NCBI GenBank assembly: GCA_026396015.1
Contig: JAPLXP010000003.1
Location: 105,810 to 169,809 of the forward strand
Origin: Candidatus Nomurabacteria bacterium
Lineage (GTDB): Bacteria; Patescibacteriota; Minisyncoccia; Phycocordibacterales; UBA9973
Direction of reading: 5' to 3'
DNA length: 64,000 nucleotides
Shown here: positions 12,634-48,733 of the stretch, piece after piece
How the letters are laid out: each line of letters opens with the position of its first letter
How positions within the stretch are numbered: the first letter of the stretch is position 1
Position numbers and translations under genes: made by a program
The notes under the pieces: model-generated
The model's input: the letters and a program-made list of their open reading frames with translations, nothing else
What the model was told of the DNA's origin: nothing
Databases searched by the model: none

Positions 12634-13758
12634 ATGAATATTCCTTTTGGAGATATAATCAAAGACGGCCTAACTTCATTCTTCAAGAAAGAAAGCAATG
12701 AGAGTGTTCTTGGTATAGATATTGGATCATCTTCTATAAAAGTTGTTCAGATCAAGAAAAAAGGAGGCAAGGCAGTCCTTGAGACTTACGGTGCACTATC
12801 ACTAGGTCCATACATGCAGTCTGATATCGGTCAGGTTGTGAATGCTCCGGTGGATGTGATAGCTTCAGCACTTGTTGATGTCATCAAAGAAGCAAATGTT
12901 ACTACAAATTATAGTGCGGCGGCTATACCATCATTGTCTAGTTTTATGTCTGTAATTACCTTGCCGTCTGGGGTATCAAAAGAAAATTTTGCAGAGATCA
13001 TACCAAATGAAGCTCGTAAATATATTCCAATACCTATGTCTGAGGTTTCTTTGGATTGGTGGCCAATACCTAGGCAAGTAGAGTCCTATGAAGAGAGCGA
13101 GGTGGGTGTAGTCCAACCAGAAGTTAAGACTGAAGTTTTATTGGTAGCCATACACAATGATACTCTTTCTAAATATCAAGATATCTTGAATAAAGTTGGA
13201 TTAAATACTAATTTTTTTGAGCTTGAAATATTTAGTTCTATTCGTTCTACTTTTTCTCACGATCTGGCCCCAGTCTTGTTTATCGACTTTGGTGCATCTA
13301 AGACAAAGCTTTCTATCGTTGAATACGGTATTATCCGGGTATTTCATATTGTGAATCGTGGAGGTGCAGATATTTCTAAGAATATTTCACAAGCGATGTC
13401 TATTTCATTTAAAGATGCTGAAAAATTAAAGAGGGAGATAGGTCTAGATAAATCAGCAAATGTTGATGCTGCAGAGATAGTTTCATTGTCTATAGAGTAT
13501 ATGCTTTCTGATGCAAATAATGTTGTACTTGCTTATGAAAAGAAGTATAATAAAAATATCAGTAAGGTTATTCTATCAGGTGGCGGAGCACTTACAAAAG
13601 GATTGTTTAATCGCGCAAAAGAAAATTTTCGTGCCGAGGTTATTTATGGAGATCCTTTTTCAAAAACAGAAGCACCAGCATTTTTAACTCCAGTATTAGA
13701 AGTAAGTGGTCCAGAATTTGCAGCAGCAGTGGGTATTGCCTTAAGGCAACTTTCATAA
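12634..13758 (+). CDS. pilM: type IV pilus assembly ATPase-fold protein PilM
   Basis: Actin-like fold start LGIDIGSSSIKVVQIKKKG. Size and position ahead of pilN/O-like genes. Confidence 0.8.
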   Translation: MNIPFGDIIKDGLTSFFKKESNESVLGIDIGSSSIKVVQIKKKGGKAVLETYGALSLGPYMQSDIGQVVNAPVDVIASALVDVIKEANVTTNYSAAAIPSLSSFMSVITLPSGVSKENFAEIIPNEARKYIPIPMSEVSLDWWPIPRQVESYEESEVGVVQPEVKTEVLLVAIHNDTLSKYQDILNKVGLNTNFFELEIFSSIRSTFSHDLAPVLFIDFGASKTKLSIVEYGIIRVFHIVNRGGADISKNISQAMSISFKDAEKLKREIGLDKSANVDAAEIVSLSIEYMLSDANNVVLAYEKKYNKNISKVILSGGGALTKGLFNRAKENFRAEVIYGDPFSKTEAPAFLTPVLEVSGPEFAAAVGIALRQLS

Positions 13759-13761
13759 CAT

Positions 13762-14520
13762 ATGGACAAATCTTTTCAAACATCATTTATTCCCAAGAAA
13801 CCATTACTACAAGAAAGCTATGTAAAATCAGAGCCGATGAGTTTTTTTTCATTTATTGCAGGTGTTTTGTTTGTAGGATCACTTCTTTGTTTTGGGGGAC
13901 TTTATCTGTATAAGAGTTTTTTATTGAATCAAAAAAGTGTTTTAGAAAAATCTTTACTGTCATCACGTGATAGCTTTGAACCAGAAACAATAAAAGTTTT
14001 AGAACTTTTTGATTTAAAAACAAATATATCTAAACAGTTATTATCCAGTCATACTGTAATTTCTCCTTTCTTTAATACCTTATCATCTTTAACTATTCCT
14101 TCTGTTCAATACACAAAGTTTGGCATAGACGTTTCAGAAAAGGGAGCATCTGTTACTATGACTGGTGTTGCTTTGGATTATCAATATATTGCTCTTCAAG
14201 CTCAGACATTTAATAATGCAAAAGGATCCTATTTTAAGAATGTTATTTTTTCTGATCTAGTTTTAAAAGATAAAAAGAGCGGAAATGTTTCTTTTAAAAT
14301 ATCTTTTGATGTCGATCCTGCATTGTTATCCTACGAAAGATCTGTCTCTAGTCCAGAAAGTGCTCAGCCTGCAGTAAATAATGTCATTCCAGCAAAAGAT
14401 GTACCCAGCACTGATGTTGTCGCTCCTGTGTCACAGGATATAAAGATAGACAATTCTCAGCCAAAAACTGTACCACCGAGTGTACAAGGACAATCATTAA
14501 TTATTCCTAAAAAACCATAA
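13762..14520 (+). CDS. PilN-like pilus assembly protein (bitopic)
   Basis: Single N-proximal TM (FFSFIAGVLFVGSLLCFGGLYLY). Gene-order context between pilM and pilO-like. Confidence 0.5.
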   Translation: MDKSFQTSFIPKKPLLQESYVKSEPMSFFSFIAGVLFVGSLLCFGGLYLYKSFLLNQKSVLEKSLLSSRDSFEPETIKVLELFDLKTNISKQLLSSHTVISPFFNTLSSLTIPSVQYTKFGIDVSEKGASVTMTGVALDYQYIALQAQTFNNAKGSYFKNVIFSDLVLKDKKSGNVSFKISFDVDPALLSYERSVSSPESAQPAVNNVIPAKDVPSTDVVAPVSQDIKIDNSQPKTVPPSVQGQSLIIPKKP

Positions 14521-14521
14521 T

Positions 14522-15145
14522 ATGAGAAATATAACATCGATTATTTTTATAGTTATATCATTAGGTGTATTTATTGTTCTTGTTAGTCCTCTGTATTCTA
14601 ATGTTAAAAAGATTAAATCTGATATTGTTGTTTACAATACTGCTCTTTCTAATGCAACAAATCTACAGAAAACTAGAGATTCTCTTTTGAATAACTACAA
14701 AAGTATAAGTCAGTCTGATGCCGAGCGTTTGAATCACTTTATTCCTAATACGGTTGATAATATACAGCTAATTCTCCAGATTCAAAAAATTGCTAAAAAA
14801 TATTCATTAGTTTTGAAAAACATTAAATTTGATTCACCTTCATTGGATAAAAATAATCAAAACCAGCAACAGAAGACTGTCGCTATATCTGGGTCAAAAG
14901 ATGGACTACCCTATGGTATTTTTAATTTAGAATTTTCAGTAGATGCACGCTATGGTGATTTTAACTCTTTCCTTAAAGATCTTGAATACAATATACGCCT
15001 GTTGAATATTAAAAATATTTCATTTACTGTACCAAATCAGTCAGACAAGAGCGTAAAGCCCTATGATCCAAATTCACCCTTTGAGTCAAATGATCCTAGT
15101 ATATATACTTATTCATTAAAAATTGAGACATATTGGCTTAAATAA
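14522..15145 (+). CDS. PilO-like pilus assembly protein (bitopic)
   Basis: N-terminal TM ITSIIFIVISLGVFIVLVSPLY. Context. Confidence 0.5.
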   Translation: MRNITSIIFIVISLGVFIVLVSPLYSNVKKIKSDIVVYNTALSNATNLQKTRDSLLNNYKSISQSDAERLNHFIPNTVDNIQLILQIQKIAKKYSLVLKNIKFDSPSLDKNNQNQQQKTVAISGSKDGLPYGIFNLEFSVDARYGDFNSFLKDLEYNIRLLNIKNISFTVPNQSDKSVKPYDPNSPFESNDPSIYTYSLKIETYWLK

Positions 15146-15150
15146 ATATT

Positions 15151-15531
15151 ATGAGTAAAATTATTAAAATTATATTGATTGTAGCAGTGATAGCTCTTTT
15201 GGGTTTTGTATCTTTTTATTTTATCAACCAAAAGTCAGATACTTCTTCTGGTGATACTCCTAGTGTAGAAACCGCATCTTCTACTTCATTTATTTCAACT
15301 CTATTATCATTGAATAAAATTAAAATAGATCCAACTCTTTTTAAAAATCCTTTTTTCTTAAAATTGCAGGATAATACTGTTTCTGTAAAGAATGAGAGTG
15401 GGGTAGTGGGTCGAACCAATCCTTTTGCTCAAATCGAGGTTCAGTCTACTTCTAGTTCAGAGATATTGTTACCTCAAATAAATACAAATTTAAATGTTGA
15501 GTCAAAAAATATTAACCCAGCAGTTAATTAA
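15151..15531 (+). CDS. small membrane-anchored pilus-locus protein (PilP-like?)
   Basis: N-terminal TM IIKIILIVAVIALLGFVSFYFI. Context only. Confidence 0.3.
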   Translation: MSKIIKIILIVAVIALLGFVSFYFINQKSDTSSGDTPSVETASSTSFISTLLSLNKIKIDPTLFKNPFFLKLQDNTVSVKNESGVVGRTNPFAQIEVQSTSSSEILLPQINTNLNVESKNINPAVN

Positions 15532-15534
15532 TCT

Positions 15535-17271
15535 ATGTTGTTTTTAAATGAATTATTGAAGAGGGGTTTATTGACGGAAAATCAAATTTCTGAAGTTCTT
15601 TCTGTCGCCAATGATAAATATGGAGGAGTTATTGATTTAGCTCTTTTGGATTTTAAAATAAGTGAAGATGTGATTCTTGACATAAAGGGCTCTTTTTACA
15701 ATATTCCTATAAAGAAAATTGATCCAAAATCTGTAAAACCATCCACTTTAAAATACATTCAAATAGAAACTGTTAAAAATTATGGTTTTGTACCTATTGG
15801 TCTTTCTGATGATGTTTTAGAGGTTGGGCTCGTTGATCCTGAAAATATCCATGCCATGGATGCATTGCAATTCATATCTACGCAAATAAATAAACCATAT
15901 AAAATTTTTCTTATTGGTTATTCTGTTTTTAATCAATTGATTGATATGTACCAAAACCTCGGCAATGAGGTTGACCAGGCACTTTCTGAATTAGATTCTG
16001 AAATATCAAATGTGACAGGGGATGGTGGTGTATCTATTGAGAATATAAAAAAACAAGACGATCTAAAACCCGGAGAAGAAGAAAAAATAGTTGAGGATGC
16101 TCCTATTATAAAAATTGTAGCTGTTATTCTTCGTCATGCGACAGAGGGTAATGCTTCAGATATACATATTGAAAATAGTGGAGATAAAGTAAAAGTAAGA
16201 TTCCGTGTTGATGGTGTGCTCCACACTTCACTCATATTGCCATTAAATGTATATAGTGGGGTTGTTGCTCGCATAAAAATTTTATCTAAATTAAGACTTG
16301 ATGAAAAGAGAAAGCCTCAAGATGGTGGATTTTCTGCTAAAATTGAGGGTAGAAAGATTGATTTTCGTGTATCTACAATGCCGTCCTACTATGGAGAAAA
16401 AGTTGTTATGCGTATCCTTGATCCTGAAAAGAGTGTCCACAAATTGGACAATATTGGTCTTACTGAAGAAAATCTAAAACTGGTGCGTGATGCACTCAGC
16501 AAGCCTTATGGCTTAATTCTCATTACTGGTCCTACTGGTTCAGGTAAGAGTACTACTCTGTATTCAATGCTCACAGAACTTGATTCAGAGGAAGACAATA
16601 TTGTATCACTCGAAGACCCTGTAGAATATCATATTCCTGGAGTAAACCAATCTCAGGTTATGCCAGAGATAGGGTATACATTTGCTTCGGGCTTGCGTTC
16701 TATTCTTCGTCAGGACCCAGATATCATAATGGTGGGAGAGATTCGTGACAAAGAGACTGCCCAGCTAGCCATCCAGGCAGCATTGACTGGTCACCTTGTG
16801 TTTTCTACTTTGCACACCAATAATTCAGTTGGGGCTATCCCTCGTCTTATAGATATGGGGGTTGATCCTTATCTTATCGCCCCCACTCTAATATTGACTA
16901 TTGCTCAGCGTCTAGCACGCAGAATTCACCCTTCATCACGTCACAAAATACAGATGGATGAATCTACGAAAGAAATGATAAACAAACAATTTGCAGATTT
17001 ACCAGAAGAACAGAGATCAAAATTGCCAATTGGGGATACTATTTACGAGAGTGTATCTTCTTCGGAATGTGCATCTGGCCTACAGGGCCGTGTGCCAGTA
17101 TTTGAGATGTATGCCGTGGATAAAGAAATGCAAAGAGTTATTCTAAAAAACCCTACAGAAGATGATATATATAAATTGGCTCGCTCAAAAGGAATGCTTA
17201 CAATGAAAGAGGACGCAATATTAAAGAATTTGAAGGGAGAATTGCCATTTCAGGAGGTTTACAATCTGTAA
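15535..17271 (+). CDS. pilB: type IV pilus assembly ATPase PilB (GspE family)
   Basis: N-terminal GspE_N domain, Walker A GPTGSGKST, Asp box, His box, CxxC...CxxC tetracysteine region. Confidence 0.85.
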   Translation: MLFLNELLKRGLLTENQISEVLSVANDKYGGVIDLALLDFKISEDVILDIKGSFYNIPIKKIDPKSVKPSTLKYIQIETVKNYGFVPIGLSDDVLEVGLVDPENIHAMDALQFISTQINKPYKIFLIGYSVFNQLIDMYQNLGNEVDQALSELDSEISNVTGDGGVSIENIKKQDDLKPGEEEKIVEDAPIIKIVAVILRHATEGNASDIHIENSGDKVKVRFRVDGVLHTSLILPLNVYSGVVARIKILSKLRLDEKRKPQDGGFSAKIEGRKIDFRVSTMPSYYGEKVVMRILDPEKSVHKLDNIGLTEENLKLVRDALSKPYGLILITGPTGSGKSTTLYSMLTELDSEEDNIVSLEDPVEYHIPGVNQSQVMPEIGYTFASGLRSILRQDPDIIMVGEIRDKETAQLAIQAALTGHLVFSTLHTNNSVGAIPRLIDMGVDPYLIAPTLILTIAQRLARRIHPSSRHKIQMDESTKEMINKQFADLPEEQRSKLPIGDTIYESVSSSECASGLQGRVPVFEMYAVDKEMQRVILKNPTEDDIYKLARSKGMLTMKEDAILKNLKGELPFQEVYNL

Positions 17272-17350
17272 TTCTAAGATTCATTTCACATCCTTGTTTA
17301 GTAGTGCAGGCCTAGGCAAAAAATTAGTAGTGTAATATAATTAATATATT

Positions 17351-17734
17351 ATGGAAACAAAGAAAAAAATTTTAATTGTTGACGACGACGTTTTTCTTTT
17401 AGATATGTATGCTTTAAAATTTAGTCAATCAAATTTTGACGTTATTACTGCTCTTGGACCAGAGGTTGCTTTAGAAAAAGTAAAAGACGGACTTAATCCT
17501 GATGTTATGATTTTGGATATCATAATGCCAGTCATGGATGGATTTGAATTTTTGGAAAAGATTAATGAAGAGCAGTTGATGAAAGATACAATAAAAATAT
17601 TATTATCTAATCGTGGTCAACAGTCAGATATTGCCAGAGGGGAAGCGTTGGGTGCATCTGGATATATAGTCAAAGCCTCAAATACTCCATCTGAAGTTGT
17701 TCAAAAAGTTGTAGATATTATTAATAAAAAATAA
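17351..17734 (+). CDS. receiver-only response regulator (PilH/PilG-like) inside the pilus ATPase operon
   Basis: KILIVDDD...MILDIIMPVMDGFEF...K. 127 aa. Confidence 0.7.
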   Translation: METKKKILIVDDDVFLLDMYALKFSQSNFDVITALGPEVALEKVKDGLNPDVMILDIIMPVMDGFEFLEKINEEQLMKDTIKILLSNRGQQSDIARGEALGASGYIVKASNTPSEVVQKVVDIINKK

Positions 17735-17738
17735 AAAA

Positions 17739-18794
17739 ATGGAAAAAAAGGCTGGAATTGAGGATTTTATCACAACATTGATTCGCGAGGGGGGGTCAGA
17801 TCTTCACCTTGCAGCAGGGAGAAAGCCCGCTATTCGTGTTAGTGGTGATTTGTTGTTTTTGGTGAATCAAGATGAAATATCTTCCGACCAAATGGTTGAT
17901 TTTTTGAATACTTTACTCGGTAATGATCGATATGAATCTTTTTTGAAGAAAAAAGAATTTGATTTTTCTTATAGTTTCAATGGTTCACGTCTCCGCGGGA
18001 ATGCTTTTTTTCAGAGAGGTCTAGCTTGTCTGTCCTTGCGTCTTATTCCAAAATCAAAACCAATATCTGAATTGCACCTCCCTACAATACTAGAGAATTT
18101 TTCCCGTAGAAAGCAGGGGTTCTTTCTCGTAGTGGGACCTGTAGGTCAAGGAAAATCTACAACCCTTTCTTCTATGGTTGATTTGATTAATCAGGAGCGA
18201 ACTGCACATATTGTGACAATCGAAGATCCAATAGAATTTATATATGAACCAAATAAATCAATCATTGATCAGCGTGAAGTAGGAATAGACACAGATGATT
18301 TTCCTGTAGCACTCAAGGCTGCACTCCGCGAAGATGTGAATGTGCTATTGATAGGGGAGATGCGTGACCCAGAGACTATATCTGCCGCTGTGACTGCTGC
18401 TGAGACTGGGCACCTTGTATTCTCTACACTACATACAAACAATGCTTCACAGACTATCGACCGTATTATCGACTCATTTCCACAAGGACAACAAGATCAG
18501 ATTCGCATACAATTGGCAGCTAGTTTGATCGGAATTTTTTCTCAGAGATTGATCCCTCGTATTGCAGGTGGCAGAGTACCAGCATATGAACTATTGATAA
18601 ATAATAATGCAGTTTCTAATTTGATCCGTGAAAGGAGAACCCACGAGATAGATATAGTCATAGAGACCAGTTTTGAGCAGGGGATGATAGATATGAATCG
18701 TTCACTCATCGAGCTAGTCCAGCAGGGCGAGATTTCTATGGACACAGCTTATCAGTATTCTTTTAATCCAAAAGCTCTAGAACAGCTCATGTAA
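17739..18794 (+). CDS. pilT: twitching-motility / pilus retraction ATPase PilT
   Basis: Walker A GPVGQGKST plus AALREDVNVLLIGEMRD and GHLVFSTLHTNNA motifs. Confidence 0.85.
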   Translation: MEKKAGIEDFITTLIREGGSDLHLAAGRKPAIRVSGDLLFLVNQDEISSDQMVDFLNTLLGNDRYESFLKKKEFDFSYSFNGSRLRGNAFFQRGLACLSLRLIPKSKPISELHLPTILENFSRRKQGFFLVVGPVGQGKSTTLSSMVDLINQERTAHIVTIEDPIEFIYEPNKSIIDQREVGIDTDDFPVALKAALREDVNVLLIGEMRDPETISAAVTAAETGHLVFSTLHTNNASQTIDRIIDSFPQGQQDQIRIQLAASLIGIFSQRLIPRIAGGRVPAYELLINNNAVSNLIRERRTHEIDIVIETSFEQGMIDMNRSLIELVQQGEISMDTAYQYSFNPKALEQLM

Positions 18795-18795
18795 T

Positions 18796-19998
18796 ATGTT
18801 ATTTACCTACAAAGCTATAACCAATACAAATGAAAAAAAAGAAGGCTCTGTGGAGGCTCTTTCTCGAGATACTGCTATCACTGCATTGCAGCGACGTGGA
18901 CTCATTGTCATATCTATCGAGGAATCAGGCAAGCCTAAAAATTTTCTAGAGATTAGGTTGTTTGATAATGTGCCCATGAAAGATATCGTGATAATGTCAC
19001 GTCAGATTTCAACATTGTTCGAGGCGAGTGTATCAGCATTAAAGGCCTTCAGTCTTCTCGCTGGAAATACTCAAAATCACAAATTGTCTGGTATTTTAAA
19101 TAATATCTGTGAAGATATTCAGGCGGGTACATCTATCAATGCTGCTATGGCAAAGCACCCCGATGTATTTTCTGAATTCTATACAAACATGGTCAAGGCC
19201 GGAGAGGAATCAGGTAAGATGACACAGACATTCACATACCTGGCTGACTATTTAGAACGTCAGTATCAGCTCACATCCAAGACAAAGAATGCATTGATAT
19301 ACCCAGCATTCGTCATCGGTGTATTCTTTTTAGTTATGATCTTGATGTTTACATTTATCGTCCCAAAGCTGACAGCTATGATCAAGGATTCAGGGCAGGC
19401 GATACCACCATTCACAAAAGTCATCATGGGGATCAGTGATTTGTTCGTAAGCTATGGAATCTTCATGTTGATATTTTTTGCTATAGGTGTATTTTTGCTT
19501 TATCGTTTTATGACGACAGAAAAAGGTAAATACTATATGGATAATCTGAAGATTTCTGTGCCTGTAGTAAAGAATATTTACCAAAAATTGTACCTATCTC
19601 GTATGGCAGACAATATGGATACGATGCTATCCTCTGGTATCCCTATTGTGCGGTCTATCGAGTTGACTGCTGCTGTGGTGGGGAATCGTGTGTATGCAGA
19701 AATTCTAAAAAATACTACTGAGATGGTAAAGTCTGGTAGCTCGCTATCCGAAGCTTTTGCAAAGCATGAGGAGATACCAGCAATCATGACTCAGATGATA
19801 CGTGTGGGGGAGGAGACTGGATCCCTGGGTAATATTCTCAAAACCCTAGGTCACTTTTACAATCGTGAGGTGCAGGACGCCGTAGATACTATGGTGGGAT
19901 TGATCGAGCCTATCATGATTGTGGGTCTAGGTTTAGGTGTGGGGATCCTTCTATCTGCTATTTTGATGCCTATATACAACATTGCAGGGGGTATGTAA
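18796..19998 (+). CDS. pilC: type IV pilus inner-membrane platform protein PilC (GspF family)
   Basis: 400 aa, two GspF repeats, three TM segments. Confidence 0.8.
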   Translation: MLFTYKAITNTNEKKEGSVEALSRDTAITALQRRGLIVISIEESGKPKNFLEIRLFDNVPMKDIVIMSRQISTLFEASVSALKAFSLLAGNTQNHKLSGILNNICEDIQAGTSINAAMAKHPDVFSEFYTNMVKAGEESGKMTQTFTYLADYLERQYQLTSKTKNALIYPAFVIGVFFLVMILMFTFIVPKLTAMIKDSGQAIPPFTKVIMGISDLFVSYGIFMLIFFAIGVFLLYRFMTTEKGKYYMDNLKISVPVVKNIYQKLYLSRMADNMDTMLSSGIPIVRSIELTAAVVGNRVYAEILKNTTEMVKSGSSLSEAFAKHEEIPAIMTQMIRVGEETGSLGNILKTLGHFYNREVQDAVDTMVGLIEPIMIVGLGLGVGILLSAILMPIYNIAGGM

Positions 19999-20092
19999 TA
20001 CAAAATAGGTGGATATGGTTGTCCACAGTTTGGTTTAGTTGTGTTTTTTATATCTACATATGATATAATACACGTATTACAAATTAGGTCGC

Positions 20093-20109
20093 GTCTTTTC
20101 GAAAAAGAC
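20093..20109. promoter_or_regulatory. perfect palindrome GTCTTTTCGAAAAAGAC in the pilin leader/promoter region
   Basis: 7-bp arms + 3-nt centre, 25 nt upstream of the pilin ATG. It could be an operator or a 5'-UTR stem. Confidence 0.3.
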
Positions 20110-20133
20110 ACAATTATTAGTATTTTTAAAAAT

Positions 20134-20535
20134 ATGAAATTAAATTATAAAAAAGGTTTTACATTGATCGAATTGTTGGTTGTTATCGCAATCATTGGTA
20201 TTCTTGCTTCTGTTGTTATGACATCATTGTCATCTGCAAAGACAAAGGCAAATAGAGCATCAGCTCTATCAAGTGCTGCTGGGGTAATGCCAGCAATCGT
20301 TTCATGTGCAGATAATTCAACAGCTACTGTTAATGCACCAACAAATACTTCAATTGGTGGTGGAAGTATTTGTAGTGATTCTTCTAATGTTAATTCAACA
20401 TGGCCAAGTTTAGGTTCAACAGGATATACATATTCTGTTACAAACTTCACTGCTACAACTGGTTCAACATTTAGTGTTAACTCAGCTACTGGTGCAAATA
20501 TAACTTGTAATTCTATAACTGGCTCTTGTCTATAG
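20134..20535 (+). CDS. type IV pilin, candidate major pilin (prepilin leader MKLNYKKG|FTLIELLVV); ORF-track start 20041 is an upstream in-frame extension
   Basis: Class III signal peptide with G at -1 and E at +5, hydrophobic alpha1, Ser/Thr-rich C-terminal domain. Confidence 0.8.
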   Translation: MKLNYKKGFTLIELLVVIAIIGILASVVMTSLSSAKTKANRASALSSAAGVMPAIVSCADNSTATVNAPTNTSIGGGSICSDSSNVNSTWPSLGSTGYTYSVTNFTATTGSTFSVNSATGANITCNSITGSCL

Positions 20536-20545
20536 TATGTTTTTT

Positions 20546-20578
20546 AAAAAACCACCCATTGGGTGGTTTTTTTGTTTT
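20546..20578. terminator. terminator hairpin ccaccc-att-gggtgg + T tract
   Basis: The same core ccacccaWtgggtgg recurs at 48712. Confidence 0.65.
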
Positions 20579-20605
20579 AAATTAGTATTATGTTAAAATC
20601 ATTTA

Positions 20606-21313
20606 ATGGATAAAAAGATACTTTCAGTTGTAATTCCAGCATATAATGAGTCATATACTATAGGTTTAGTTATTGAAAAAGTATTAAATTTAAAATTTAT
20701 CAATCATTGGACAATTGAGCTTATTGTTGTGAATGATGGTTCTACTGATAATACTCTTGAAGTTTTAAGAAAATATCAAGATAAAATTATTTTAATAGAC
20801 AAAAATATAAATGAGGGCAAGGGTTCTGCCGTAAAATATGGACTTAGGGTTGCGAAAGGGGATTACGTTATTATTCAGGATGCAGATTTAGAATATGATC
20901 CAGTGGATTATATGATTTTTTTGCATATGATTGATTCTGGTTATGATGTTGTTTTTGGGTCTAGGGTTTTAAATAAAAATAATATACCTTATAGTAGAGT
21001 ATATTATTATGGTGGGTTGTTATTAACGAAATTATTTAACTTTCTTTTTAAGACAAATTTTACAGATTTAGCTTCCTGTTATAAAATTTTTCCTCGAAAA
21101 TATATAAAGCAAATTATTAAAATTAAAGACAATGATTTTTCTTTTGATTTTTTGGGTATTTCTCATGTTTTGATTTTGAATGAAAAAAATATAATTGAGG
21201 TACCCATTAGATACACCCCTAGATCGTCAAAAGAAGGAAAGAAGTTAAATTTTTTTCACGGTCTAAAAATATTTTTAAGCATTATAAAGTTATATATTAA
21301 TAAATATGAATAA
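20606..21313 (+). CDS. family 2 glycosyltransferase (GtrB / DPM1-like polyprenyl-phosphate sugar synthase)
   Basis: VVIPAYNE, DGSTD and DAD(LEYD) motifs of GT-A fold GT2. Confidence 0.75.
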   Translation: MDKKILSVVIPAYNESYTIGLVIEKVLNLKFINHWTIELIVVNDGSTDNTLEVLRKYQDKIILIDKNINEGKGSAVKYGLRVAKGDYVIIQDADLEYDPVDYMIFLHMIDSGYDVVFGSRVLNKNNIPYSRVYYYGGLLLTKLFNFLFKTNFTDLASCYKIFPRKYIKQIIKIKDNDFSFDFLGISHVLILNEKNIIEVPIRYTPRSSKEGKKLNFFHGLKIFLSIIKLYINKYE

Positions 21314-22997
21314 TTTTTTACGTATTCTAAAAAATAAATTAGGCTTTTATTTAAATATTTTAAATACGAATAAATTAATATCTTATTTGTGTGTATTTTC
21401 TATATTTTTTGTCATTTTTGCTTTTACTTATATGACTACGAATAATTTATCGTCTAGCGACGATCATTATTTTCATATAAGGTTTGCAGAACAAATGCGG
21501 CAGGTAGGTTTTCTGGATTCTTTTAATAATTTTAAAGCTGTATATTTTAGTAAGAGTGCCCATGGTATATCTTATATGTATTATAATTTTTTGTTTTATT
21601 TATTGTTAATACCATTTACTTTTATTGTTCCACTATATTTAGGTATAAAGTTGTATGCTGTTTTTATTCTAGCTGTTATATCTGTTTCAATGTATTTTGT
21701 TTTCAGGTCATTAAAAATAACAAATGCCTTTCTTTGGACAGCTGGATTCTTTGCTGTTGTTGGTTTGAGTCCATTATTTAGACTTTTTTTATCACGTCCA
21801 TATGTATTAGCGCCTACTATTTTATTGTTTGTATTACTATTTTTACATAAAAAAAAATATGTTCTAGTTTTAATATCGTCTTGTTTGTATGTAATTTGGC
21901 ACGGTGCCACTTTCTTTCTACCTTTTTTTATTGGTTGTAGCTATTTTATCTCAAATATTTTATACACTCGTAAATATAATTGGAAAATTTTAATTTATAC
22001 CTTTAGTGGGGTACTAGGGGGGGTTGCTATTACTTATCTTTTTGGTCATGGATTTTTTACCTATATAAATGATGATCTAATTAGCGTACTGAAAGATTTT
22101 TTAAGTAATAAAAAGATCAATATACCAGAAGGTAATGAATTATACCCTAAGAACTTTTTTGATTTCATAAATCAAAATGTATTATTTTTCTTTTTATTTA
22201 TGGTGTCTATAGTATCTGGTTGTGTAATTTACTTTAAAAAATATACAGATAATAAAAAAGAAAACTTTAGAATTCTTGACGATTCAGATACGCTGGTGCT
22301 GTCCTTATTTTTGATTTCAACTGTTTTTTTTGTTGCAATATCTAGTTTTAGTAATCGTTTTAGTGACTTCTTTATATTTTTCGGGTGGATTTTTATTGTA
22401 TTAATTTTAAATTTAATAATTAAAAACATTAGTTTTAATACTGTAGTGGTTAAAAATGGATTTTTTTCTGGAATATTAATTGCAATGCTTTATTTGTTTG
22501 GGAATAATCTTTTGCAAATCAGGGATTTTTTTGGAAGTAACCCAAATACGTTTGTGAATATTGGTAATTATATTGATAGAAATGTCCCAAAAGGAGATAT
22601 TGTATTTGATACAAATTGGTCATGGTTTCCACAGTTGTATTACTATGCGCCAAATGTTAATTATGTAGTTGGTCTTGAGCCCAAGTTAACATATCAGTAT
22701 AATCAGGAAATTTATTGGTTGTGGTCTCATATTGGTGATGGTTATGTCTGTAATGTTGAATCATGCCAAGATAAGATGGATTCTATTAAAAAATTATCTG
22801 ATGAAAAATTTGCTAAAAAATGGAAAAAAGAGGAGGGGGATGCTATGGCTGAGATATTAATTAATAAATTTAGTAGTCATACAGTAGTAACTTCCAAGGA
22901 CTATAGAGCTTTGAATTTTGTATTACAAAATAATGATAGATTTAAGCTAGAATTAAAAGATAATAATTTATATGTGTATACTGTTTTAAACAAATAA
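21306..22997 (+). CDS. large polytopic membrane protein, candidate GT-C-fold glycosyltransferase (ArnT/PMT/YfhO-like)
   Basis: 563 aa with more than 10 TM helices, acidic DD in the first extracytoplasmic loop (SSSDDHYFHIRFAE), large C-terminal soluble domain. Overlaps the GT2 gene. Confidence 0.4.
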   Translation: MNNFLRILKNKLGFYLNILNTNKLISYLCVFSIFFVIFAFTYMTTNNLSSSDDHYFHIRFAEQMRQVGFLDSFNNFKAVYFSKSAHGISYMYYNFLFYLLLIPFTFIVPLYLGIKLYAVFILAVISVSMYFVFRSLKITNAFLWTAGFFAVVGLSPLFRLFLSRPYVLAPTILLFVLLFLHKKKYVLVLISSCLYVIWHGATFFLPFFIGCSYFISNILYTRKYNWKILIYTFSGVLGGVAITYLFGHGFFTYINDDLISVLKDFLSNKKINIPEGNELYPKNFFDFINQNVLFFFLFMVSIVSGCVIYFKKYTDNKKENFRILDDSDTLVLSLFLISTVFFVAISSFSNRFSDFFIFFGWIFIVLILNLIIKNISFNTVVVKNGFFSGILIAMLYLFGNNLLQIRDFFGSNPNTFVNIGNYIDRNVPKGDIVFDTNWSWFPQLYYYAPNVNYVVGLEPKLTYQYNQEIYWLWSHIGDGYVCNVESCQDKMDSIKKLSDEKFAKKWKKEEGDAMAEILINKFSSHTVVTSKDYRALNFVLQNNDRFKLELKDNNLYVYTVLNK

Positions 22998-22998
22998 T

Positions 22999-23580
22999 AT
23001 GAAAACAAAAAATTTTAATGCGATAGATAAGACTATAGCAAAAATGAGATTAAGAAAGGTTTCTCAGTTTGTAAATAAAGATGATGTTGTTTTAGATTTT
23101 GGTTGTGGGTATCAAGCTTTTTTCTTAAAAAGTATTAGTGATAAAATTTCTAAAGGGTGGGGTATTGATTATGAGGTAGAAAATGATGTTAGCTTTAAAA
23201 ATCTAACATTAATGAACCTTAATTACCAGGGAAATTTACCTTTTGAAGATAAAAAATTTGATAAGATTTTTCTATTGGCAGTTTACGAGCATATCCCACT
23301 TGAGAGCACTGTGTCACTTTTGATTGAACTAAAGAGGGTATTGAAAGACAATGGAAAAATAGTGTTAACTATACCAACGCCAAAAGGTAAGTCAGTAATG
23401 GAATTTTTGGCATTTAAATTAGGGGTAATTTCAAGGGCTGAAATTGCTGATCATAAAAAGTATTATTCAAAGGAGGACATTCATGGTGATGCTACTAAAG
23501 CAGGATTATGTTTGAGTTATCATCGTTATTTTCAATTTGGGTGGAACAGTCTACAGGTCTTAGAAAAGAATAATGATTAA
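22999..23580 (+). CDS. class I SAM-dependent methyltransferase
   Basis: Motif I VLDFGCGYQAFF and motif post-I/II spacing. 193 aa. Confidence 0.55.
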   Translation: MKTKNFNAIDKTIAKMRLRKVSQFVNKDDVVLDFGCGYQAFFLKSISDKISKGWGIDYEVENDVSFKNLTLMNLNYQGNLPFEDKKFDKIFLLAVYEHIPLESTVSLLIELKRVLKDNGKIVLTIPTPKGKSVMEFLAFKLGVISRAEIADHKKYYSKEDIHGDATKAGLCLSYHRYFQFGWNSLQVLEKNND

Positions 23581-23974
23581 TTTTTTCCAAAAAATAAGCA
23601 ATGTTAAATTTGTAAGGTATGTATTTTTTGGCGCAGTCGTTGCATTTTCTGTGTTTTTACTCTTATATTTACTTGTTAACATATTTAACCTATGGTATTT
23701 ACCTGCCTCGGTTATTACATTCTGTTTTGGCGTAATATTAAGTTTTTTATTACATAAATATTTTACATTTAAAGACCATGTAAATAGTAAAAGTAAGCAA
23801 TTTTATATTTTTTTTGTTTATAATATAGGAATTCTTGTTTTGAATACGCTGCTAATGTATATATTTGTTGATGTTTTTGGGTTTTGGTATATGTACTCCC
23901 AAATATCAATAACTATAATCACTGCATTTGTAAATTATCTAATTTTTAATAGGTTTATATTTAGATTTAATTAA
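23573..23974 (+). CDS. GtrA-family small membrane protein (polyprenyl-P-sugar flippase component)
   Basis: 133 aa with 4 TM. The VRYVFFGAVVAFSVFLLLYLL...KYFTFKD pattern is typical of GtrA. Confidence 0.6.
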   Translation: MINFFQKISNVKFVRYVFFGAVVAFSVFLLLYLLVNIFNLWYLPASVITFCFGVILSFLLHKYFTFKDHVNSKSKQFYIFFVYNIGILVLNTLLMYIFVDVFGFWYMYSQISITIITAFVNYLIFNRFIFRFN

Positions 23975-23998
23975 CAAAAACTACCTCTTGGGTGGTTT

Positions 23999-24511
23999 TT
24001 GTTTTTGTATTATAATAAAAAAGGTTTTACATTACTAGAGTTGCTTGTTGTCATTGCGGTTATTGGTATTTTGGCTGCTGTAATAATGGTAAGCGTTTCT
24101 AGTTCTAAAACTAAAGCACAAGTGGCAAATATAAAACAGCAATTTGATAGTATGCGATCACAATCAGATGTATATTATGCAAATAATAATGATTACGGAA
24201 CAGGGTATGCTTATTCTTCTCGTGGGGATAAGTCTGGTACTGGATCTGAAATTTGGGTAAATGATAATTGTGTTACAGATAGTGGTACTGGTATTTTTAG
24301 GCGCTCAACAACTGGTCTTGGTAATCTCATAAACGGTATTTGTAAATCTGGTGCGTCTAGTATTATCGTTGCTGTTGATACTGACCCTGCCACAAAGTGG
24401 GCTATTAAAGTAACTGGTCCGGGTTCAAATTATTTTTGTGAAGATAGCTCTGGTGTTTTGTATTTTCGTACAACTTCTGCTTATAATGTTCTTAATGGCG
24501 TTTGCTCGTAA
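23999..24511 (+). CDS. type IV pilin 2 (prepilin leader ...NKKG|FTLLELLVV); apparent TTG start
   Basis: Class III signal peptide and hydrophobic alpha1, about 150-aa globular domain. Confidence 0.7.
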   Translation: MFLYYNKKGFTLLELLVVIAVIGILAAVIMVSVSSSKTKAQVANIKQQFDSMRSQSDVYYANNNDYGTGYAYSSRGDKSGTGSEIWVNDNCVTDSGTGIFRRSTTGLGNLINGICKSGASSIIVAVDTDPATKWAIKVTGPGSNYFCEDSSGVLYFRTTSAYNVLNGVCS

Positions 24512-24553: not shown

Positions 24554-25363
24554 ATGTCTACACTCGCATATTTTTTTATTTTTTGTTTTGGTACCATTAT
24601 CGGAAGTTTTCTCAATGTAGTTATCTATCGTTTTAATAGTGGCAAGACTCTAGGGGGTAGGTCCATGTGTATGACATGTAGCAAGACACTGGCATGGTAT
24701 GAGTTAATACCAGTATTTTCTTATTTGTTCCAAGTTGGTAAATGTCGTTCTTGTTCTACTCGCATATCACACCAGTATCCACTGGTTGAATTATTCACAG
24801 GTGTAGTATTTACAATGATTGCGTATCATTTTTATGACATTGTCTTTGTCTCATTCAATCAGTATATATTGCTCGTATCAGTATACATGATGATATTTTC
24901 TCTACTATTGGTCATCTCTGTGTACGATATGCGTCACAAGGTGATTCCAGATCCGCTCGTTTTTGCTTTTATCGTATTTAGTTTTTTTACAATGTTCATC
25001 AGTAGTGTTCCTTTTGGCAATTTATTCGTGCAGCCTAGCATGTCTGCATTTTTGGCTGGACCGCTATACGCTCTACCATTTGCATTGATATGGTTATTGT
25101 CTCGCGGAAGATTTATGGGGCTAGGAGATGCAAAATTAATTCTTGGTATTGGTTGGATGTTCGGTATAGTCCAGGGTGGGGCAGCATTGATGTTGTCTTT
25201 TTGGATTGGTACTATTGTCAGTCTGCTGATTATATTTTTTAGTAAAATGAAATTCTCTATGAATACAGAGATTCCTTTTGGTCCGTTTTTGGCAATCAGC
25301 ACACTCATAGTATTTTTCTTTTCTTTAAATGTATTTGATTTAGCTTCTATCTTTAGTTTTTAA
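24554..25363 (+). CDS. pilD: prepilin peptidase PilD (A24 family)
   Basis: N-terminal tetracysteine CMTC...CRSC, 7-8 TM, catalytic Asp context. Confidence 0.8.
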   Translation: MSTLAYFFIFCFGTIIGSFLNVVIYRFNSGKTLGGRSMCMTCSKTLAWYELIPVFSYLFQVGKCRSCSTRISHQYPLVELFTGVVFTMIAYHFYDIVFVSFNQYILLVSVYMMIFSLLLVISVYDMRHKVIPDPLVFAFIVFSFFTMFISSVPFGNLFVQPSMSAFLAGPLYALPFALIWLLSRGRFMGLGDAKLILGIGWMFGIVQGGAALMLSFWIGTIVSLLIIFFSKMKFSMNTEIPFGPFLAISTLIVFFFSLNVFDLASIFSF

Positions 25364-25366
25364 AAA

Positions 25367-26704
25367 ATGATGAATCTTAATAATAAACAAAAGAATAGGG
25401 GAATGACTCTCGTTGAATTGATGGTCGTTCTTGCTATCATGTCTATTATTTCTGCTATTGTTGTTACTAATTATTCAGGATATAAATCTAGTAATTCCAT
25501 CAAGATAACTGCAGACGACATAGCTCTCTCTGTTCGACAAGCTCAGGCTTTTGCTATTGGTGTCAGGTCTACCTCTTCTGATGTCTTTCCTGGGTATGGT
25601 ATTCATTTTGATACGTTTGATAGTGGTTCTGTCGTGAATGTTGAAGTTTTACCAGAATGCTCTGATCACAAGGACAATGATGCAGATATGTATTTTGATA
25701 TAGGTGATCCTTCTTGTCATTCAGATTTTGATACATCAAATGCGTCCAGTTATAATCCAGATTTTAATGATGAGTCTCGTAAATCTCAATGTTCTGATGG
25801 ACTTGATAATGATGGAGATGGGTCTGTGGATATTGACGATCCGCAGTGTCATACAGACAGTGACTCTTCTAATTTTGGCTCTTATAATCCATTGTGGGAC
25901 AACGAATCTTCTCGATCTACACTGGGTACTTTTTTGTGCTCAAATGGTATAGACGATGATTCAGATGGACAGATTGATTACAATGATCCTGATTGTCATA
26001 TTGATAAAAATAATCAAAATATAAATAGTTACAACAAGACTATAAATAGTGAAGGTAATTCTACTCTGAATACTGGCTCTGGTGATGCTGGTGGAGGTGG
26101 TGTTGTTGATCCAAATATTGGTCCAGCTGCTTTTTTATTTAATAACTTGAGTAAAAAAATTGCTCAAAATATTTCTAGTGAATTAAATAATTTTTTAAAG
26201 AATACGACTCCTAGTGTTTTTGCTGATGGTGTTCTCGGTAGTATCTCGGGGAATAGTAATTCCTTTATTTTGTTTGCAGATATTCCTTGTGGTATTGGAG
26301 ATCAAAAAGGTAATAATCAGTATGATTATCCAAATACAAGTTCACCCACACCTTGTGGTGGATCTAGTGCCAGTACAGGTTATGTTTGTGATAGTTCATC
26401 TCTTGTCTCAGGGTATGAGTGTCTGAATATTTTCAATACACCTGGTACAGACAAGATCGTCGGCCTCTGTGTAAATGATGAATGCGAGAATTCCATGTTG
26501 GGTAGCAAGGGTACATTGGATATTGTATTCAACAGACCCAATCCAGATGCTAATTTTTGTTTCAGAATTTTAGGGTCTCTTTCTAGTGGTTGCAGTAATA
26601 ATTCTGCCGAGATATCCCATGCTGGTATTATTGTTCAATCAAGTATAGATGAGAGGACAAAAAAGGTGATCATTTATAGCACAGGTCAGATCAGTGTAGA
26701 ATAA
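25367..26704 (+). CDS. large pilin-like protein (prepilin leader NRG|MTLVELMVV) with three tandem Cys-bounded Asp-rich metal-binding repeats; candidate tip/minor pilin adhesin
   Basis: Class III signal. Repeats C.D..DND.DG..D..DP.CH.D.D.SN..SYNP x3 (aa 98-224). Confidence 0.65.
   Translation: MMNLNNKQKNRGMTLVELMVVLAIMSIISAIVVTNYSGYKSSNSIKITADDIALSVRQAQAFAIGVRSTSSDVFPGYGIHFDTFDSGSVVNVEVLPECSDHKDNDADMYFDIGDPSCHSDFDTSNASSYNPDFNDESRKSQCSDGLDNDGDGSVDIDDPQCHTDSDSSNFGSYNPLWDNESSRSTLGTFLCSNGIDDDSDGQIDYNDPDCHIDKNNQNINSYNKTINSEGNSTLNTGSGDAGGGGVVDPNIGPAAFLFNNLSKKIAQNISSELNNFLKNTTPSVFADGVLGSISGNSNSFILFADIPCGIGDQKGNNQYDYPNTSSPTPCGGSSASTGYVCDSSSLVSGYECLNIFNTPGTDKIVGLCVNDECENSMLGSKGTLDIVFNRPNPDANFCFRILGSLSSGCSNNSAEISHAGIIVQSSIDERTKKVIIYSTGQISVE
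25658..26040 (+). repeat. three tandem coding repeats (about 40 codons each) encoding DxDNDxDGxxDxxDPxCH motifs (MopE/thrombospondin-type-3-like Ca/metal-binding)
   Basis: ECSDHKDNDADMYFDIGDPSCHSD / QCSDGLDNDGDGSVDIDDPQCHTD / LCSNGIDDDSDGQIDYNDPDCHID read directly from the translation. Confidence 0.6.
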
Positions 26705-26707
26705 TTT

Positions 26708-27283
26708 ATGTCAGAAAAATATTTTAAAAAAAATAATGGTTTTACCTTGATTGAAATAATGGTTTCAATGTCTATTTTTATGATAGTTGTGTTGATGGCA
26801 TTGGGGGCATTGCTTGTGGTGAGTGGTACTGCAAAAAAGTCACGAGCACTACATCAAACTATGGACAATATAAATTTTGCTATGGAGAGTATGACAAGAT
26901 CATTACGAACAGGTACAGATTATAGTTGTATTGATTCTGGAGACTATGTCATATTGCCTCTATCTTATACAGCAGATTGTTCTTTTGGTGGTGATGCTAT
27001 TGCCTTTAGACCTCAAAATAGTAGCTCATCAGATACGATGTATTTGTTTGATCACGATAAATCTGTTTTGAAAAAGTGTACTATTTCTGGGTGTGTAAAT
27101 ATGACATCACCAAATGTGGTAGTAGATGATTTGAAATTCTTTGTAAAAGGAACTGGTTCATCTTTTTTGGGTGATTATACTCAGCCAAGTGTTTTTATCC
27201 GGATGAGTGGGTATGTCATGAATGGTGAAAATAAAGAGCAATTTTATTTACAGACTATGGCTTCACAGCGTAGTGCAGAATAA
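26708..27283 (+). CDS. minor pilin / pseudopilin (leader KKNNG|FTLIEIMV)
   Basis: Class III signal peptide motif. Confidence 0.6.
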   Translation: MSEKYFKKNNGFTLIEIMVSMSIFMIVVLMALGALLVVSGTAKKSRALHQTMDNINFAMESMTRSLRTGTDYSCIDSGDYVILPLSYTADCSFGGDAIAFRPQNSSSSDTMYLFDHDKSVLKKCTISGCVNMTSPNVVVDDLKFFVKGTGSSFLGDYTQPSVFIRMSGYVMNGENKEQFYLQTMASQRSAE

Positions 27284-27286
27284 TAT

Positions 27287-27910
27287 ATGTTAAATATTAA
27301 TTATAAAATTTTAAAAAATAACAAAAAAAATCCTCAAATTTTAAGGCAAGGAGGATTTACTCTACTGGAGACATTGATTGCTCTGTTGCTATTGGTTATG
27401 GTTTTGAATCCAGCTTTTACTCTGTTGTCAAATAGTCTTCTTGGTTCAAAATATGCCAAGAATCAGATGACTGCGGATTATTTACTTCAGGAAGTTGTTG
27501 ATTTTATTCGTAATGATAGAGATAGTTTTACTCAGAATAACAAGGATTGGGATGGTTTTGTTAAAAAATATGGATTGGTAGACGGGGGTATGGGTAAAAC
27601 AATCAAATCAGCTTGTGTTATAGAGACATCACCATTGAATAATGTGGTGGATTGTCAGACTATCCCAGATAACTCTGAAAGTTCCGTTCCTCCGGCCACC
27701 CTTTATTACGACAAGAGTAGTGTTTATGGTGGGTACTATACAACAAAATCAAATATTGCAAATGCAACACCTACCATCTTTAAGAGAGAAGTCCTCATGA
27801 CTCTACTCGAGGGGGATGAAGTGGATATATCAGTGACAGTGACATGGAGTGATGGTTTTTCTGAAAAAAAACGTACACTATATAGTAGCTTACTTAATTG
27901 GCAGCAATAA
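27287..27910 (+). CDS. minor pilin (PilV-like), long leader then G|FTLLETLIALLLL
   Basis: QGGFTLLETLIA prepilin cleavage/methylation motif. Confidence 0.5.
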   Translation: MLNINYKILKNNKKNPQILRQGGFTLLETLIALLLLVMVLNPAFTLLSNSLLGSKYAKNQMTADYLLQEVVDFIRNDRDSFTQNNKDWDGFVKKYGLVDGGMGKTIKSACVIETSPLNNVVDCQTIPDNSESSVPPATLYYDKSSVYGGYYTTKSNIANATPTIFKREVLMTLLEGDEVDISVTVTWSDGFSEKKRTLYSSLLNWQQ

Positions 27911-27912
27911 TA

Positions 27913-45595: not shown

Positions 45596-45598
45596 ATA

Positions 45599-48705: not shown

Positions 48706-48733
48706 AAAAAACCACCCAATGGGTGGTTTTTAG
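48706..48733. terminator. bidirectional terminator ccaccc-aat-gggtgg
   Basis: Same hairpin core as at 20552. Confidence 0.65.

Follow-up and report, generated by a model that had tools for sequence, protein, structure and literature searches.

Why does a type IV pilus operon contain, halfway along, a set of sugar-transferring genes? The question is raised by a 64-kb window (by which we mean the whole stretch of DNA that was analyzed) from the metagenome-assembled genome of an uncultured, ultra-small Candidatus Nomurabacteria organism within the Patescibacteria, also known as the Candidate Phyla Radiation (CPR). Here, a complete type IV pilus operon carries between two of its pilin genes a cassette encoding a family 2 glycosyltransferase (GT2), a polytopic membrane protein of 563 amino acids (aa), a class I S-adenosylmethionine (SAM)-dependent methyltransferase, and a small GtrA-family protein (Table 1). 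No surface machine of Patescibacteria is better conserved than the type IV pilus, which mediates attachment to the host in the few cultivated members. A 2024 study of Saccharibacteria pili only predicted O-glycosylation sites, called for their confirmation, and named no enzyme (PMC11623550). In the literature on Patescibacteria or Parcubacteria together with pilins, glycosyltransferases, or oligosaccharyltransferases, we found no description of the module. We propose that these four genes most probably serve to glycosylate the major pilin (pilin 1), which makes the cassette a concrete and testable set of enzymes for pilin modification in the CPR radiation. Accessory glycosylation of pilins by a three-component pathway around a glycosyltransferase of the GT-C fold is an already known kind of system, and what is new are the enzyme family and the lineage.

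Linkage of the cassette to the pilus operon

A preliminary description of this locus, made from its sequence, had proposed a Gtr-type three-component glycosylation cassette embedded between two pilin genes. Its gene order and the coordinates of all six open reading frames (ORFs) proved exact, with all of them on the + strand, and profile matches bear out the identities that it had given to the two pilins, the GT2, and the SAM methyltransferase. A profile search also recovered the GtrA protein as PF04138 (GtrA_DPMS_TM; 68.6 bits vs. a cut-off of 26.1), and a GT2 of the polyprenyl-phosphate type, a GtrA protein, and a GT-C protein, i.e., the parts of a three-component architecture, are indeed all present.

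The linkage to pilins extends far beyond this genome. We collected loci through six single-homolog look-ups and a scan of one genome per species, annotated them with an ORF caller, phmmer, and a regular expression for prepilins, and counted linkage across 36 patescibacterial species representatives whose GT-C proteins are 31% to 46% identical to that of the window. In 35 of these 36, the GT-C gene is part of the pilus operon, with PilC/pilin on one side and the prepilin peptidase gene pilD on the other; the sole locus without any pilus gene is L045. A pilin and PilC are encoded immediately upstream of GT-C at 29 of 31 evaluable loci, and PilD is encoded downstream at 25 of 26. The interior of the cassette is variable in the order of GT2 and GT-C, in gene fusions, and in the presence of genes on the opposite strand, while its position between pilin and PilD is constant. 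That the same place in the operon is kept despite rearrangement, fusion, and apparent horizontal movement argues for a functional dependence on the pilus and supports the view that the cassette is dedicated to the pilus system, so that the pilin linkage on which the preliminary description had staked its proposal holds across relatives.

Gene fusions tie the components to each other. GT2 and GtrA are joined into one protein of ca. 360 aa at two loci (L011 and L013), which is the architecture of archaeal dolichol-phosphate-mannose synthase (DPMS), whose membrane domain is a PF04138 module. The GT2 is fused to the methyltransferase at four loci (L023, L027, L040, and L041) and to GT-C at 10 of the 36, and all four components are thus linked pairwise. 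These fusions place the GT2 and the methyltransferase at the cytoplasmic N-terminus of GT-C. A methyltransferase is part of ca. 20 of the 36 cassettes; besides the fusions, a class I enzyme is encoded 3' of GT-C at further loci. The methyltransferase probably acts on the sugar while this is still at the cytoplasmic face, and the idea of a methylated sugar, voiced in passing in the preliminary description, has gained support from the fusions and from this frequency. We further note that the cassette of one relative (L005, 11808-14482) contains three nucleotide-sugar genes between those for the methyltransferase and GtrA, encoding an NTP_transferase, an RmlD_sub_bind protein, and a dehydratase/epimerase of the rmlA/B/D type (dTDP-6-deoxyhexose type), which hints that the transferred sugar differs between lineages.

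The cassette is not part of the standard equipment of these operons. When relatives were chosen through PilC, i.e., independently of GT-C (20 metagenome loci with PilC 54% to 82% identical to that of the window), the cassette was found in none of the 18 operons spanning PilC to PilD, the rest of which is gene-for-gene syntenic. Species that do carry it have PilC proteins at most 58% identical to that of the window, and the divergence of GT-C does not track that of PilC (rho 0.30, p = 0.12). With 26.4% GC as compared to 35.5 ± 2.7%, the interval 20606-23974 is the lowest of 304 sliding windows of 3.4 kb; an artefact of membrane-protein coding was considered as the cause and rejected, because the GC content is just as low in the genes of the soluble GT2 and methyltransferase, and other membrane protein genes lie at 33% to 41%. 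With 41% to 48% identity, pilin 1 is orthologous over its full length to the only pilin of the cassette-free relatives L089, L090, and L101, and pilin 2 has no ortholog in the nearest ones (L089 and L090). The absence from the closest relatives, the lowest GC content, and the mismatch of PilC and GT-C point to an accessory and mobile module. Taken together, we view 20606-23974 as an accessory, horizontally mobile module inserted between the genes of the major pilin and the prepilin peptidase that behaves like the strain-variable pilin accessory genes of Pseudomonas, which protect against pilus-specific phages. A strain-variable and mobile module of this kind offers a handle on variation in host range, phage evasion, and immune evasion among uncultured episymbionts.

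The GT-C-fold protein and its family

The central component, a protein 100% identical to NTX85_01260 of NCBI (encoded on a contig of 262 kb), was the least recognizable by sequence. The window's own protein had no match in Pfam, NCBIfam, or a single-sequence search of the PDB, 50 of its homologs matched no STT3, PMT, YfhO, or other GT-C model of Pfam at E ≤ 1, and a search of the PDB with the family profile returned only four chance-level matches (E 0.8 to 5.4). The organism behind the 100 homologs that we found is, where named, a member of the Patescibacteria except for a few low-scoring archaeal entries and one labelled Nitrosopumilus. None of the 100 has a Pfam domain in its GT-C region, and around one-fourth are fusions of ca. 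800 aa with an N-terminal GT2 domain.

An AlphaFold2 model built on the 50-sequence alignment (pLDDT 94.5, pTM 0.92) shows ca. 13 transmembrane (TM) helices followed by an external alpha/beta domain of ca. 150 aa at the C-terminus (approximately residues 410-563), moderate in size rather than large as first described. With this model, the top Foldseek matches in the PDB were GT-C enzymes only, led by yeast and human STT3 (8e-9, TM-score 0.63) and PglB (3e-8) and continued by DPY19 (4.5e-7), AglB (3e-6), ALG12, ALG9, ArnT (2.4e-4), and AftA. The closest fold neighbors are AglB, STT3, PglB, DPY19, and PMT, and most of the top ones modify proteins. Searched alone, the C-terminal domain matched the C-terminal domain of AglB, so that its sole separate match is an N-oligosaccharyltransferase. 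As far as the model goes, the protein clearly has the GT-C fold that had been suspected, combining a 13-TM core with a C-terminal external domain of the central-core fold of oligosaccharyltransferases (OSTs), and this soluble domain is predicted to be OST-like and not YfhO-, TPR-, or MIR-like. The likeness to YfhO that had been suggested was not borne out, given that no member of the family matches YfhO (PF09586), just as the profiles of PMT (PF02366 and PF13231) and of ArnT-type GT-C enzymes remained without a match.

The alignment of 50 sequences is invariant at D53, H57, K115, R159, and E278, and at least 92% conserved at R164, R351, W438, and F441. The pair of aspartates that had been noticed in the first external loop is real: it is D52-D53 in the loop after TM1, with D53 invariant in the 50 homologs and D52 conserved at 86%.

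We do not claim membership in the STT3 family itself (PF02516) in the light of the lack of any Pfam match at E ≤ 1 or PDB profile match and of hhalign comparisons of the family profile with Campylobacter lari PglB and human STT3A, which gave probabilities of only 1.1% and 1.3% (with query sequences checked against PDB entries 5ogl_A and 6s7o_A). The single local alignment in each of these comparisons falls on a known catalytic motif but is statistically insignificant. It sets DDHYFHIR on FDPYFNYR of STT3A, with D53 over D49, and in PglB it sets NIPE (272-275) on TIME (E319) and R351 on R375; the Glu that hhalign aligns with PglB E319 is thus E275, whereas the invariant Glu of the family is E278. 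In OSTs, the WWDYG motif, situated after the last TM helix, reads and binds the +2 Ser/Thr of the sequon. This motif is not conserved here, and the position that corresponds to it by sequence order, not by superposition, carries WxWFPQLYYY without the Asp, in which W438, F441, and L444 are at least 92% conserved.

When 1.84 billion cluster representatives were searched with the family profile, it retrieved 3,601 clusters at E ≤ 1e-3, of which 1,731 at E ≤ 1e-30. The protein therefore belongs to a large GT-C family of at least 3,600 clusters at 50% identity that has no curated (Pfam) model and whose nearest structural relatives are, as judged from the modeled fold, the N-oligosaccharyltransferases.

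Proposed pathway, acceptor, and linkage

For the donor, the acceptor, and the chemistry we infer the following course. The GT2, anchored or assisted by GtrA, would move one sugar from a nucleotide sugar to polyprenyl monophosphate at the cytoplasmic face, and the soluble SAM methyltransferase would methylate this sugar either as nucleotide sugar or once it is lipid-linked. The loaded lipid would then be flipped to the outer face, with GtrA, the putative membrane partner of the GT2, as the candidate flippase. There, the GT-C enzyme would rely on D53 together with E278, R159, K115, and R351 in passing the sugar to the globular domain of pilin 1 while the latter is still anchored in the membrane, i.e., before its polymerization. 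In keeping with the first step, the best NCBIfam match of the GT2 is AglJ (2.2e-28), followed by PgfS, ArnC, and Dol-P-hexose transferase, and its only full-length matches in the PDB are DPMS of Pyrococcus furiosus (5mlz, residues 6-212) and ArnC (9hwj), the remaining ones spanning just the generic N-terminal half. By its sequence, the enzyme appears to be a polyprenyl-phosphate sugar synthase of the DPMS/ArnC/AglJ type that would act on the cytoplasmic face. Among solved structures, no relative of the GtrA protein turned up.

In function, the nearest analogue is TfpW, the pilin arabinosyltransferase of Pseudomonas (para)aeruginosa with group IV pilins, which we compared by its described features. 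Both are strain-variable accessory enzymes with a GT-C gene adjoining that of the major pilin; the DDX motif that TfpW requires in its first external loop has its counterpart in D52-D53-H54; and TfpW uses a monosaccharide donor on polyprenyl phosphate for modifying the pilin on the outer face, the same scheme that we propose here. They differ in that TfpW ends in a large periplasmic TPR domain and weakly resembles Emb enzymes, whereas the protein studied here has its AglB-like alpha/beta domain and no TPR match in Pfam. Furthermore, the donor for TfpW comes from genes of the DprE1/DprE2/UbiA type elsewhere in the genome, whereas GT2, GtrA, and methyltransferase lie within the cassette, and no genes for a D-arabinofuranose donor (DprE1, DprE2, or UbiA-like) are found among the annotated ORFs of the 64-kb window. 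TfpO/PilO and PglL are likewise accessory enzymes that glycosylate pilins on the outer face, with tfpO directly downstream of pilA. They are, however, Wzy_C enzymes moving oligosaccharides from undecaprenyl diphosphate, in contrast to the GT-C fold and the presumed monophosphate-linked monosaccharide donor of our system, and no Wzy_C/O-antigen ligase domain of Pfam was matched by the window protein or its 50 homologs.

Several observations weigh against the proposal that the module glycosylates the major pilin. All NCBIfam matches of the GT2 stay below the equivalog cut-offs and so do not single out a sugar. GtrA was detected in only ca. 12 of the 36 cassettes, fewer than have a methyltransferase, and four loci (L021, L038, L042, and L046) have no adjacent GT2 despite full flanks, so that the module is not always self-contained. 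Distant GT-C homologs of 22% to 28% identity (L043-L088 and L008) from Chloroflexota, Blastocatellia/Acidobacteriota, Nitrospinota, and DPANN archaea keep a D-G-Y-Y-H-I-R/K motif in loop 1 but have no pilus genes beside them and share no neighborhood, which shows that the family, taken in its entirety, is not confined to pilins. Lastly, Ser and Thr make up 22.9% of the pilins encoded upstream of GT-C and 22.1% of the first pilins of cassette-free operons (p = 0.6), which leaves the Ser/Thr argument without discriminating power. Pilin-like ORFs next to the distant Nitrospinota homologs were also considered but look like spurious ORFs in GC-rich DNA.

As to the linkage, an O-linkage to Ser or Thr would by analogy be the conventional expectation for a three-component system. 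In this version of our proposal, a sub-case that differs only in specifying the linkage, the GT-C enzyme would take hexoses, one at a time and possibly methylated, from polyprenyl phosphate and attach them to hydroxyl groups of Ser/Thr in the pilin, in a manner resembling PMT, the Pgf system of Streptococcus mutans, and TfpW; we consider it a serious candidate that falls somewhat short of an even chance. The protein-modifying systems of bacteria that are known to combine a GT2 with a GT-C enzyme (PMT/Ppm1, Pgf, and TfpW) are O-linked. PgfS as second-best NCBIfam match of the GT2, a share of 36% Ser+Thr in the mature globular part of pilin 1 (which also has 10% Asn, five N-x-S/T sequons, and four Cys), and the lack of the WWDYG motif of OSTs all speak for this version as well. 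The likeness has its limits, since both PMT/Ppm1 and Pgf (PgfS as GT2 with PgfM1/M2 as GT-C) differ from our system, which shows neither a PMT/PMT_2 match nor a MIR domain and combines an OST-like C-terminal domain with its dedication to a pilus operon. Ser/Thr richness had to be rejected as evidence for O-glycosylation since it does not differ between operons that have the cassette and those that lack it, the compositional signature that does go with the cassette concerns Asn, and the best fold matches as well as the only match of the C-terminal domain are N-oligosaccharyltransferases. The preliminary description had derived an O-linked system from two pilins with Ser/Thr-rich C-terminal domains. 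This derivation falls with the comparison across operons, and even the premise fits pilin 1 only, given that pilin 2 with 22.8% Ser+Thr is average among the pilins of these operons.

The OST-like fold and the Asn-rich candidate acceptors suggest an N-linkage to Asn instead. Pilins encoded just upstream of GT-C contain 10.1% Asn, 3.0 times the background of their loci, as compared to 5.6% or 1.3 times the background in the first pilins of cassette-free operons (p = 3.6e-6). GC content is higher at the cassette-bearing loci (47% vs. 37%), and the other residues with AT-rich codons (Lys, Ile, Phe, and Tyr) do not differ between the two groups. Within the window's own pilin family, the difference is 9.4% (n = 4) vs. 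5.1% (n = 7; p = 0.04). The enrichment is absent from the pilin downstream of GT-C and from minor pilins, and pilin 2 of the window has no N-x-S/T sequon. Contrary to what had been supposed, the signature thus singles out the upstream pilin and not both pilins as targets. In these upstream pilins, N-x-S/T outnumbers the reversed motif by 114 to 67 (binomial p = 6e-4; per-pilin Wilcoxon p = 4e-4), while control sets are close to 1:1 (40/42, 112/128, and 50/50). Broken down by pilin family, the asymmetry is 80/37 (24 pilins), 18/18, and 16/12, so that one family carries the signal; counted by alignment column, it is only a trend (43 vs. 27, 13 vs. 14, and 13 vs. 9), and the excess of N-x-S/T over composition-preserving shuffles has z = 2.1.

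The cassette might accordingly be compared with the AglB pathway of archaea, in which AglJ as GT2, AglP as methyltransferase, and AglB work together. Archaea N-glycosylate their type IV pilins and archaellins, and a methyltransferase is part of the Haloferax pathway. The cassette GT2 has AglJ as its best NCBIfam match, and, as would suit such a system, the candidate acceptor pilins are rich in Asn. Other traits set it apart: it has no detectable sequence membership in STT3/AglB, it carries WxWFPQLYYY in place of WWDYG, it can build a monosaccharide donor only, and its host is bacterial. The transfer of archaeal N-glycans starts from dolichol monophosphate carriers (PMC4476749). This use of a dolichol monophosphate by AglB, the OST-like fold, and the AglJ-like GT2 together make an N-linkage plausible. 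Rather tentatively, we therefore put forward the possibility that the cassette is a minimal archaeal-style N-glycosylation pathway in a bacterium, with a very divergent STT3/AglB-like GT-C enzyme that modifies Asn of the pilin. An AglJ-like GT2 and an AglP-like methyltransferase may load a single, possibly methylated sugar on polyprenyl monophosphate for a GT-C enzyme that, to judge from the model, may have kept an AglB-like 13-TM core and the fold of the C-terminal domain while losing the WWDYG motif. Should this turn out to be true, the GT-C family, in which only the patescibacterial branch is pilus-linked, would be a previously unrecognized branch of the OST superfamily, and OST-type protein N-glycosylation would reach a bacterial lineage and an enzyme family that are both new to it. 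The pili of CPR bacteria would in that case bear N-linked sugars, as archaeal pili do, which would sharpen the question of how glycosylation of bacterial and archaeal type IV filaments is related.

We find it improbable that the acceptor is another molecule of the cell envelope (a cell-wall polysaccharide, a lipid, or an S-layer protein) or a glycan already present on the pilin to which the enzyme would add side branches like a Gtr protein, so that the position in the operon would reflect merely co-regulation or a permissive insertion site. The parts list of the cassette is indeed that of the classical three-component systems GtrA/GtrB/Gtr and CsbB/GtcA/YfhO, with a polyprenyl-phosphate GT2, a GtrA protein, and a GT-C protein with an acidic residue in the first external loop, and these systems modify O-antigen or teichoic acids and not proteins. 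The distant family members that lack pilus genes would fit such a role too, and a strong pilin terminator could create a neutral landing pad just behind it. The cassette departs from the classical systems in that its GT-C protein belongs to none of the GT-C families known to Pfam and that the methyltransferase is a frequent fourth part while GtrA is often missing, and its context points to a protein, the pilin. Such a reading sits poorly with 35 of 36 independent species keeping the gene at the same position of the pilus operon through rearrangements, fusions, and apparent horizontal movement, with the cassette-specific composition of the adjacent pilin, and with the absence of Wzx/Wzy or initiating phosphoglycosyltransferase genes in or beside the cassette of the window. 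Finally, a non-catalytic role of the 563-aa protein in pilus assembly or anchoring, with GT2, GtrA, and methyltransferase belonging to an unrelated pathway, could invoke the GPI-transamidase subunits PIG-U and GAB1 (non-glycosyltransferases of GT-C-like fold) among its weaker fold matches and the loci without an adjacent GT2, but it is very hard to reconcile with residues of catalytic type that are invariant or nearly so (D53 in the first external loop, K115, R159, E278, and R351), with the physical fusion to GT2 at 10 loci, and with the lack of the gene from the otherwise complete pilus operons of the closest relatives, from which it follows that it is not needed for assembly.

Hairpins and neighboring genes

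The features of the locus are listed in Table 1. The order of the genes in the upstream half of the operon is shared with relatives (Pfam families PilM_2, T2SSE, and T2SSF). The downstream half was assigned from matches of PilD to A24_N_bact and Peptidase_A24, of a 445-aa minor pilin to N_methyl, and from synteny with relatives, and the four minor pilin genes are followed by that of LigA.

Table 1. Features of the type IV pilus locus, given in positions of the 64-kb window.
Feature	Position	Strand	Remarks
PilM, three small PilN/O-like genes, PilB, response regulator, PilT, PilC	12634..19998	+	Upstream half of the operon, context only; gene starts: PilM 12634, PilB 15535, response regulator 17351, PilT 17739, PilC 18796
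Promoter-like extended -10 box (TATGATATAAT) and 5' leader hairpin of pilin 1	20062..20109	+	Hairpin kept in relatives
Pilin 1 (major type IV pilin, proposed acceptor)	20134..20535	+	N_methyl PF07963, 5.4e-10
Intrinsic-terminator hairpin after pilin 1, repeat copy 1	20546..20577	+	AAAAACCACCCATTGGGTGGTTTTTTT
GT2 glycosyltransferase, 235 aa	20606..21313	+	Glycos_transf_2 PF00535, 1.6e-32
GT-C-fold glycosyltransferase (predicted fold), 563 aa	21306..22997	+	No Pfam model; overlaps the 3' end of GT2 by 8 nt
Class I SAM methyltransferase, 193 aa, soluble	22999..23580	+	Methyltransf_23 5.4e-11, Methyltransf_11 1.7e-9
GtrA-family protein with 4 TM helices, 133 aa	23573..23974	+	PF04138 6.9e-19; overlaps the 3' end of the methyltransferase by 8 nt
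Second copy of the pilin-terminator hairpin	23973..24006	+	Immediately 3' of the GtrA stop codon; extends over the TTG start of pilin 2
Pilin 2, 170 aa, TTG start	23999..24511	+	N_methyl PF07963, 4.2e-9
Prepilin peptidase PilD (from 24554) and four minor pilins (25367-28392)	24554..28392	+	Downstream half of the operon, context

The preliminary description had also pointed out a palindrome in the leader of pilin 1. The element, GTCTTTTCGAAAAAGAC at 20093-20109, is present and occurs once in the window (with 0.03 chance matches expected), but it is a hairpin with a 7-bp stem and a 3-nt loop rather than a perfect palindrome, lying ca. 20 nt downstream of the TATGATATAAT box and directly after a conserved AGGUCG. 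It is not tied to the cassette either, because cassette-free relatives have a hairpin at the same place of the leader, after AAGUCG, with different stem sequences. The stem covaries among relatives (GUCUUUU/AAAAGAC, GCUCUAU/AUAGAGC, UCAGCC/GGCUGA, and AUCUGC/GCAGAU); given their differences in length, RNAalifold gave no consensus for the leaders, and the hairpin was seen by folding each sequence separately. Conserved in the leader of the pilin mRNA and independent of the cassette, the hairpin probably has an mRNA-stabilizing or regulatory role.

Two terminator hairpins of the form AAAAACCACCC-N3-GGGTGGTTTTT bracket the cassette and are 84% identical over 31 nt (20547-20577 and 23976-24006), whereas cassette-free relatives have one such hairpin after the pilin, directly followed by PilD. 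As an insertion scar, this flanking repeat is suggestive only. A third copy at 48706-48730, which serves as a bidirectional terminator between convergent genes, counts against that interpretation and indicates that the repeat may just be a common terminator.

Pilin 2 has no ATG start, promoter-like box, or leader, and its only possible start codons are the TTGs at 23999 and 24005. Both lie in the T-tract of the terminator hairpin before it, so that expression of pilin 2 would depend on read-through, and it could be a poorly expressed or alternative pilin.

Some further genes of the window deserve mention. A stand-alone response-regulator receiver gene (17351-17734) lies between PilB and PilT, and nearly every related operon has kept it there, whether or not it carries the cassette. 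Of the minor pilins, the one closest to PilD (25367-26704) has 445 aa with 14 Cys, and its globular part has an insertion of three "acidic double-disulfide repeats" (NCBIfam NF033662, 3.2e-21), while its orthologs in relatives have only ca. 190 to 260 aa. The NAD-dependent DNA ligase (28396-30564) is 722 aa long as compared to ca. 665 to 690 aa in most relatives and contains an Arg/Gly/Ser-rich insert of ca. 60 residues near the zinc-finger region (RETESRKSPRGDGLAERAREGDPRTSMRGAFSAEGKTSQ...). Finally, two tandem GH130 genes on the - strand (43664-46759) belong to the beta-1,4-mannooligosaccharide phosphorylase family (1.4e-98 and 1.8e-39), the first with an N-terminal extension of ca. 340 aa that has no Pfam match, and the pair could feed mannose-1-phosphate to nucleotide-sugar synthesis.

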